Source: Escherichia coli
GTDB lineage: Bacteria > Pseudomonadota > Gammaproteobacteria > Enterobacterales > Enterobacteriaceae
Assembly: GCF_003334765.1 (NCBI RefSeq)
Contig: NZ_QOWT01000028.1
DNA length: 52,994 bases
Strand: one strand, 5' to 3'
Part shown: in pieces, positions 52,083-52,301 of the stretch
How the letters are laid out: every line of letters begins with the position of its first letter
Position numbering within the stretch: the first letter of the stretch is position 1
The notes under the pieces: generated by a model
Database searches by the model: none
The model's input: the letters and a program-made list of their open reading frames with translations, nothing else
What the model was told of the DNA's origin: nothing
Translations under genes and position numbers: made by a program

Positions 52083-52301
52083 TCAAAACAGTGAAAATCG
52101 TCCGAGTATACCTTGTACAGCGGTCAAGGTTAACCGGCGATTGAGTACCGAAATCAGAAAGAAGTGGCTTTTCATTGCCATGGCGCAAATCACGGGAAGA
52201 AACTGACCGCCTGCTGCAATTTTTATCGCGGAAAAGCTGTATTCACACCCCGCAAGCTGGTAGAATCCTGCGCCATCACTACGTAACGAGTGCCGGCACA
52301 T
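52083..52301 (-). CDS. yaaY: small hypothetical protein (YaaY-like), function unknown
   Basis: 72-aa ORF MCRHSLRSDGAGFYQLAGCEYSFSAIKIAAGG... 7 nt upstream of ribF, at the position where K-12 annotates yaaY; no recognisable domain. Confidence 0.5.
   Translation of the reverse strand: MCRHSLRSDGAGFYQLAGCEYSFSAIKIAAGGQFLPVICAMAMKSHFFLISVLNRRLTLTAVQGILGRFSLF

Follow-up and report, generated by a model that had tools for sequence, protein, structure and literature searches.

The small open reading frame (ORF) yaaY is counted among the Escherichia coli genes of unknown function, and a phenotyping study from 2025 considered it "the most enigmatic" of the genes that have a phenotype in cell shape and growth (PMC12282094). 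The locus raises the question of whether this frame encodes a protein at all, or whether it is an open frame over DNA that controls the neighboring genes. An earlier note on the same DNA had left two alternatives standing, a real small protein or only a leader region for the ribF-ileS operon, and had held that the choice cannot be made from sequence. The second alternative comes close to the evidence presented below, which places the ORF over divergent promoters and a leader; the statement that the matter is undecidable was too pessimistic, as comparative analysis largely decides it. With a probability of roughly 85%, yaaY is not a functional protein-coding gene, but a frame that is open by chance over the divergent control region of rpsT and ribF. 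The part of the basis that is shown here consists of the absence of a coding signature, a block-structured conservation, and disruption of the frame in relatives and within E. coli; the part taken from the literature is the activity of the ribF promoter inside yaaY and the existence of two rpsT promoters with transcript lengths. The annotation of yaaY, the rpsT promoter P1 and the ribF promoter have all been described already, and the main value of the analysis lies in the annotation and in the reading of published experiments.

In the window, i.e. the whole stretch of 52,994 nucleotides that was analyzed, the annotated CDS of yaaY (b0024) opens on the minus strand with an ATG at 52301 and closes with a TGA whose last position is 52083 (52083-52301; 72 codons and a stop), exactly as had been described before. 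The encoded peptide of 72 amino acids, MCRHSLRSDGAGFYQLAGCEYSFSAIKIAAGGQFLPVICAMAMKSHFFLISVLNRRLTLTAVQGILGRFSLF, contains three cysteines and has a hydrophobic middle, in agreement with its earlier description as Cys-containing and partly hydrophobic. The window represents E. coli K-12: 481 nt around the ORF are 100% identical to MG1655, and the ORF that the K-12 annotation holds at the identical position is indeed yaaY (MG1655 21181-21399, between rpsT and ribF; MG1655 coordinates equal 73482 minus the window coordinate), listed in RefSeq as "DUF2575 family protein" (WP_001300728.1). On one side, the yaaY stop is separated by the seven nucleotides 52076-52082 from the ATG (52075-52073) of ribF, which encodes the riboflavin kinase/FAD synthetase (51134-52075, minus strand) and is the first gene of the ribF-ileS-lspA-fkpB-ispH operon. 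On the other side, rpsT, which encodes the ribosomal protein S20 and starts with TTG, is divergently oriented (52404-52667, plus strand) at a distance of 102 nt from the yaaY ATG; both the gap and the divergence had been read correctly. The window is closed by the IS1A element that follows rpsT in K-12 (~52800-52994), for which the MG1655 record lists an IS1-like transposase with a programmed frameshift.

Coding signals in the yaaY frame

The length of yaaY is no greater than what chance gives. When the 328-nt rpsT-ribF spacer is shuffled with its dinucleotides preserved, an ORF of at least 72 amino acids turns up in 14.8% of the shuffles, and the window contains 164 ORFs of at least 72 amino acids versus about 35 to 44 real genes. 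In a codon model built on 35 long genes of the window, yaaY has a log-likelihood of -0.10 bits per codon, which is more than 5 standard deviations below the 35 real genes (+0.375 +/- 0.089, minimum 0.177; rpsT reaches 0.206) and inside the distribution of 142 shadow ORFs located within real genes (-0.25 +/- 0.26), 36% of which score at least as high as yaaY. The GC content by codon position is flat in yaaY (0.51/0.46/0.50), whereas it is 0.61/0.41/0.62 in real genes; the frame has neither the codon usage nor the GC periodicity that is typical of the genome. Other frames of doubtful status are found on the opposite strand of rpsT, namely an ORF of 121 amino acids in the window (52419-52784, minus strand) and genes of 69 amino acids called antisense inside rpsT in two other genomes (loci L083, 1174-1383, and L086, 1173-1382), and these are further shadow ORFs at the rpsT-yaaY locus.

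Selection on the reading frame was analyzed in genomes with an open yaaY frame, with ribF and rpsT of the same genomes serving as controls; seven loci that were added via exact-protein look-ups are biased towards genomes in which the ORF is called and were used solely for these tests. A corresponding look-up for an Intestinirhabdus protein (P0018) yielded no locus. Comparison of E. coli with two Salmonella species yielded dN/dS values of 1.01 and 1.24 for yaaY, and comparison with four Citrobacter species yielded 0.86 to 1.08, against 0.04 to 0.08 for the codon-aligned ribF of the same genomes. Differences in yaaY are spread evenly over the three codon positions, e.g. 16/15/11, compared to 34/17/144 in ribF, and the pooled omega of the yaaY frame is 0.99, with 0.72 to 1.25 for the five other frames of the same DNA. 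In four phylogenetically independent pairs, the differences by codon position sum up to 33/25/40 for yaaY (p = 0.18) and to 42/24/253 for ribF (p = 6e-67). Thus, no excess at third positions and no purifying selection on the amino acid sequence of YaaY were detected. In a few pairs of species, dN/dS is below 1 (0.38 for Citrobacter rodentium and Citrobacter europaeus, 0.51 for E. coli and Escherichia albertii), with small counts and comparable values in control frames. The "synonymous" divergence of yaaY is about 0.2 and therefore far lower than that of ribF (0.8 to 1.3), which shows a constraint at the level of the nucleotides rather than of the protein.

These values bear on a rival explanation, according to which yaaY encodes a real but young and lineage-restricted small protein, possibly a membrane protein, of Escherichia, Salmonella and Citrobacter, which originated de novo over the promoters and is translated at low level from a weak upstream or read-through transcript. 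The hydrophobic central segment and the published deletion phenotype (PMC12282094) would be in line with such a protein, and the overlap of rpsT and yaaY transcripts described in RNA-seq-based work (PMC12288877) could mean that there is some transcription in the sense direction of yaaY. However, a protein under selection is hard to reconcile with an omega equal to that of the control frames and with a non-genic codon usage, and at the threshold used, the promoter scan found no sigma-70-like promoter on the sense strand ahead of the yaaY ATG. Furthermore, the Shine-Dalgarno sequence is weak, UAAG being the only one listed, and YaaY has no protein abundance value (PMC9841429).

Searches for relatives of the protein lead in the same direction. 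YaaY matches no family of the current Pfam-A even at E<=10 and no NCBIfam model at E<=1, and a PDB profile search with a profile from 16 YaaY homologs gave no match either, which bears out the earlier impression that the peptide has no recognizable domain. No family model for DUF2575/YaaY was found, and "DUF2575" persists solely as a RefSeq product label. Using an alignment of 16 sequences, AlphaFold2 predicts a single helix of low confidence (pLDDT 60.6, pTM 0.28), which agrees with the "very poor" structure prediction reported previously (PMC12282094) and is a further point against a young protein. A search of 5.8 billion proteins retrieved 27 clusters of YaaY-like calls, which range from 42 to 93 amino acids in length and are confined to Escherichia, Salmonella, Citrobacter, Intestinirhabdus and Metakosakonia; synteny of the YaaY-like ORFs at the rpsT-ribF position was confirmed in the loci L081-L087.

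The yaaY frame in relatives and within E. coli

An unbiased view of the frame is obtained from loci that were anchored on RibF and not on YaaY, of which there are at least nine in Enterobacterales among the matches listed. Among these listed loci, E. albertii alone has an intact yaaY frame. The frame is interrupted by an in-frame TAA in Citrobacter werkmanii and by an in-frame TGA in Citrobacter sp. FP75, both within 52144-52213, and two Enterobacter species, Superficieibacter, two Yersinia species and Pantoea lack it. In Citrobacter koseri, the ORF is truncated. Escherichia and Salmonella start with ATG, C. rodentium and C. europaeus with a TTG that lies one codon further downstream, and the annotated "DUF2575" CDSs of C. 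koseri and Citrobacter amalonaticus even begin with ATA (loci L083 and L085, 1501-1503 in both); such non-canonical starts are a sign of an annotation that was propagated by homology. With an identity of 0.68 to 0.74, the decamer containing the start codon belongs to the least conserved spots of the spacer. Neither the frame nor its start codon is thus conserved in relatives, and the shift of the start, including the ATA of two species, speaks against a young protein.

The frame is also disrupted within the species. In E. coli strain E2863, RefSeq flags yaaY as a frameshifted pseudogene: a single T is inserted into the spacer of the ribF promoter, which extends it from 17 to 18 nt and replaces the last 10 yaaY codons. 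Among 5,426 complete E. coli genomes, 47 carry the same 90-nt frameshift allele, and since its carriers, O111 included, come from sources as varied as cattle, humans, a crow and creek water, it is a real allele of a lineage and not a sequencing error. For a promoter, the change from 17 to 18 nt is tolerable. O157:H7-type strains (e.g. ERL04-3476, locus L089) carry an in-frame tandem duplication of the six nucleotides CCATGA in the variable middle, near window position ~52184, which results in an ORF of 74 amino acids.

Frame-disrupting variation in close relatives had been named beforehand as the observation that would speak against a real protein, and it was found in C. werkmanii, Citrobacter sp. 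FP75, C. koseri and the 47 E. coli genomes. Conservation of the ORF, and not just of the nucleotides, across Enterobacteriaceae had been proposed as a check on its reality; the full-length frame is open in Escherichia, both Salmonella species and several Citrobacter species despite a nucleotide divergence of 20 to 25%, but it is closed or missing elsewhere, where the nucleotide blocks persist instead. This retention over several genera is what a young protein would lead one to expect; the nonsense and frameshift alleles in Citrobacter and E. coli are not, and taken together with the lack of selection and of genic codon usage they make a young protein unlikely. The chance frame over promoter DNA, in contrast, accounts for both sides of the pattern, as outlined below.

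Promoters and conserved blocks between rpsT and ribF

The spacer between rpsT and ribF measures 326 to 329 nt in all 14 Enterobacteriaceae sampled, and its central ~70 nt are only about 0.5 to 0.63 identical. The preservation of length without preservation of sequence may reflect a constraint on spacing or helical phase between the divergent promoters. Outside of the ORF, the region 52304-52403, which comprises the rpsT promoter P2 and the rpsT leader, is about 99 to 100% identical. Inside, the 5' third of the ORF (52234-52293) has an identity of 0.94 with the invariant core GCTGTATTC ... CAAGCTGGTAGAATCCTGCGCCATCACTACGTAAC, and the 3' third (52086-52143) is about 0.94 identical as well. The fast-evolving middle (52144-52213, about yaaY codons 30 to 52) has an identity of 0.63 overall and of 0.37 to 0.68 per 10-nt bin, and it is here that the stops and indels of other species are located. 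Both conserved blocks are present in Enterobacter, Superficieibacter, Yersinia and Pantoea, where the ORF is absent, and because the promoter blocks persist without the ORF, the last ~20 "codons" (NRRLTLTAVQGIL-RFSLF) can be read in every genome. The alignment also shows a small conserved dyad-like block, TGAAAAGCCACTTCTTTCTG on the yaaY-sense strand (52156-52175). It is located between the two promoters, ribFp on one side and rpsT P1 on the other, and occupies about -60 to -80 relative to the putative ribF start; its pattern GAAA-N8-10-CTTTC is kept even in Enterobacter, Superficieibacter and Yersinia.

The tandem promoters P1 and P2 of rpsT go back to Mackie and Parsons 1983, as cited in PMC4868123, and the open-complex structure of P2 has been determined (PMC6970531). 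P2 (TTGACA-17-CATATT; 52328-52356, plus strand), which was recovered by the promoter scan and corresponds to the promoter in PMC6970531, lies upstream of the yaaY ATG. It was shown by 5' RACE that P2 transcripts begin with C (PMC8565310), and the P2 start was therefore placed at C52363/52364. Two rpsT transcripts, of 447 and 357 nt, are made from the chromosome (PMC4737144). The P1 transcript thus exceeds the P2 transcript by 90 nt, and the putative P1 start is therefore located at 52273/52274 on the plus strand, which is 28 nt within yaaY. A -10 element of the extended type, TGgTAGAAT (TGGTAGAAT; 52258-52266, plus strand), is found in an invariant block antisense to yaaY codons 12 to 15, and the putative start lies 7 to 8 nt past its hexamer, in keeping with the 90-nt offset. 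Further upstream (52218-52243, plus strand; conservation 0.81 to 1.00), P1 is preceded by the A/T-rich, UP-element-like AATTTTTAT followed by GAAAAG, with the invariant GCTGTATTC at the -35 position; judging from position and composition, the A/T-rich stretch at -55 to -37 of P1 resembles an UP element.

Two observations concern rpsT itself. In Salmonella, a MarA/RamA ChIP-seq site at "rpsT<>yaaY" has the sequence AAATCCATTGACAAA (PMC10268841), which is identical in E. coli at 52322-52336 and overlaps the -35 hexamer TTGACA of rpsT P2. The dS of rpsT between genera is 0 to 0.11 versus 0.8 to 1.3 for ribF, and P2 and the 5' leader are about 99 to 100% identical out to Yersinia (52304-52667). 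Synonymous rpsT mutations have been found to be costly (PMC4868123), which fits the scant synonymous divergence of this gene.

In the 3' third of the ORF, the promoter scan revealed a sigma-70-type promoter, TTAACC-17-TATACT, at 52133-52105 on the minus strand. The -35 hexamer TTAACC (52128-52133) coincides with the yaaY codons Leu57-Thr58 (TTA ACC), which adjoin the Leu codon TTG, and is followed after a 17-nt spacer by the -10 hexamer TATACT (52105-52110), which reads TATAAT in several genera. Both hexamers are kept in all 16 Enterobacterales examined, and the -35 hexamer is invariant or nearly so. Judged by hexamer spacing, transcription of ribF probably starts at about 52096-52099, and the region 52076-52099 (minus strand), which includes the last yaaY codons and the stop, would form the 5' leader and ribosome-binding region of ribF. 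Positions 52084-52093 are 100% identical in 14 Enterobacteriaceae, and the ribF leader is nearly unchanged in Yersinia and Pantoea. Experimental evidence for this promoter comes from a recoding study, in which two neighboring yaaY Leu codons were found to overlap the -35 of the essential ribF-ispH promoter. The study includes reporter and transcriptome assays. Synonymous recoding of yaaY lowered the activity of both ribFp and rpsTp and was lethal, reversion of one Leu codon at the -35 brought viability back, and a missense change in yaaY increased ribFp activity five-fold and improved fitness (PMC13287592). The gain in fitness through a change in the amino acid sequence is again not what would be expected of a young protein.

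High conservation in blocks that reach to Yersinia could also be the mark of a structured regulatory RNA, i.e. an sRNA or a riboswitch-like leader, in place of promoters. However, an Rfam scan of 51900-52800 at E<=1 yielded nothing within 52076-52403, the only matches being weak and sub-threshold at the rpsT terminator. Moreover, the blocks coincide with canonically spaced promoter hexamers, the known rpsT leader and the ribosome-binding site of ribF, and the putative ribF leader has a length of just ~22 nt, which makes a structured RNA extremely improbable.

The position of the yaaY stop, 7 nt upstream of the ribF ATG, invites a further explanation, namely that yaaY, or a sub-ORF of 30 codons that begins at a conserved ATGAAA at 52175, is a regulatory upstream ORF or leader peptide, in which the act of translation tunes ribF. 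A dN/dS near 1 would be compatible with a peptide whose sequence is irrelevant, the ATGAAA and the stop are conserved, and the 30-codon frame is open in 12 of 16 species. The ribF promoter, however, is located inside both ORFs, about 200 nt downstream of the yaaY ATG, and as the main ribF mRNA begins ~5 codons ahead of the stop, it can encode neither of them; yaaY and ribF do not share an mRNA with a ribosome-binding site for the upstream frame. Apart from the UAAG, neither ATG has a Shine-Dalgarno sequence in front of it in any of the species. Enterobacter BIGb0383, Superficieibacter and Yersinia lack the sub-ORF or have it in broken form, and in C. koseri it is truncated; the ribF leader of these four species (of 16) is nevertheless conserved. 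By chance, a stop-free promoter block would in more than half of the cases be preceded by eleven further open codons. A role as leader peptide is therefore very unlikely, and the 30-codon sub-ORF was rejected as a functional unit.

Returning to the chance frame, its origin can be sketched as follows. The 5' third of the ORF lies on the opposite strand of rpsT P1, with its extended -10, A/T tracts resembling an UP element and a putative start ~28 nt into the frame. The 3' third holds the sigma-70 promoter that drives the essential ribF-ileS-lspA-fkpB-ispH operon, and behind it come the ribF leader and ribosome-binding site. As these DNA and RNA signals are under selection, the end stretches would stay nearly invariant and, incidentally, free of stops, while neutral drift of the middle would leave the frame open in Escherichia, Salmonella and some Citrobacter and close it elsewhere; automated annotation may then have propagated "DUF2575" by homology. 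A further scenario regards yaaY as a proto-gene on two constrained promoters, which, as a by-product of promoter conservation, has stayed open over tens of millions of years, and from which pervasive transcription in the sense direction allows weak translation in Escherichia and Salmonella. We consider this scenario improbable; if it were true, the locus would show, with a date attached, how a bacterial gene can be born de novo under the constraint of promoters.

Mutant phenotypes and comparison with known systems

If yaaY is a chance frame over promoter DNA, the phenotypes assigned to it require another reading, and those obtained by deletion, transposon insertion and tagging are best explained by damage to the rpsT and ribF promoters. 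The Keio deletion design reportedly leaves only the start codon, the last six codons and the stop of a gene, and the yaaY deletion would therefore take out all of rpsT P1 and both hexamers of ribFp. Loss of these elements would readily account for the strong effects of the Keio yaaY deletion on morphology and growth, i.e. narrow cells, a growth defect and pleiotropy, from which the authors inferred a protein function (PMC12282094); ribF is mentioned nowhere in that article (0 occurrences). In the same study, a C-terminal msfGFP fusion to YaaY could not be made at the native locus (PMC12282094), probably because the fusion would part ribFp from the essential operon. Furthermore, yaaY insertions were enriched 60-fold in a transposon screen with mecillinam, in which ileS ranked third and was RelA-dependent (PMC5549755). 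A lowered expression of ileS upon insertion into yaaY, which would trigger the stringent response, fits this result.

If the ORF is only promoter DNA, these phenotypes belong to a reduced expression of rpsT and of the ribF-ileS-lspA-fkpB-ispH operon, and the search for a function of the YaaY protein would be misdirected. The locus also holds a warning for genome recoding, as an essential promoter can be lost through edits that count as "synonymous" in a doubtful ORF.

The window ORF and yaaY of E. coli K-12 are identical in sequence and position, and only the reading of the annotation differs. The rpsT tandem promoters are arranged with P2 just upstream of the yaaY ATG and P1 90 nt farther upstream with respect to rpsT, within the ORF and on the opposite strand; P1 was placed here from sequence, conservation and transcript lengths. 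The promoter of the ribF-ispH (x-ileS-lsp) operon has its -35 on two yaaY Leu codons exactly as described in PMC13287592, and its putative start in the window follows from hexamer spacing. With spurious or shadow ORF annotations over intergenic regulatory DNA, yaaY shares a non-genic codon usage, an omega near 1, a start codon that is not conserved, a narrow taxonomic range, a name propagated by homology and the lack of a domain. It differs from the usual shadow ORFs in that its frame is open unusually widely, i.e. in three genera, which can be explained by the fact that strongly constrained promoter DNA makes up about 60% of it.
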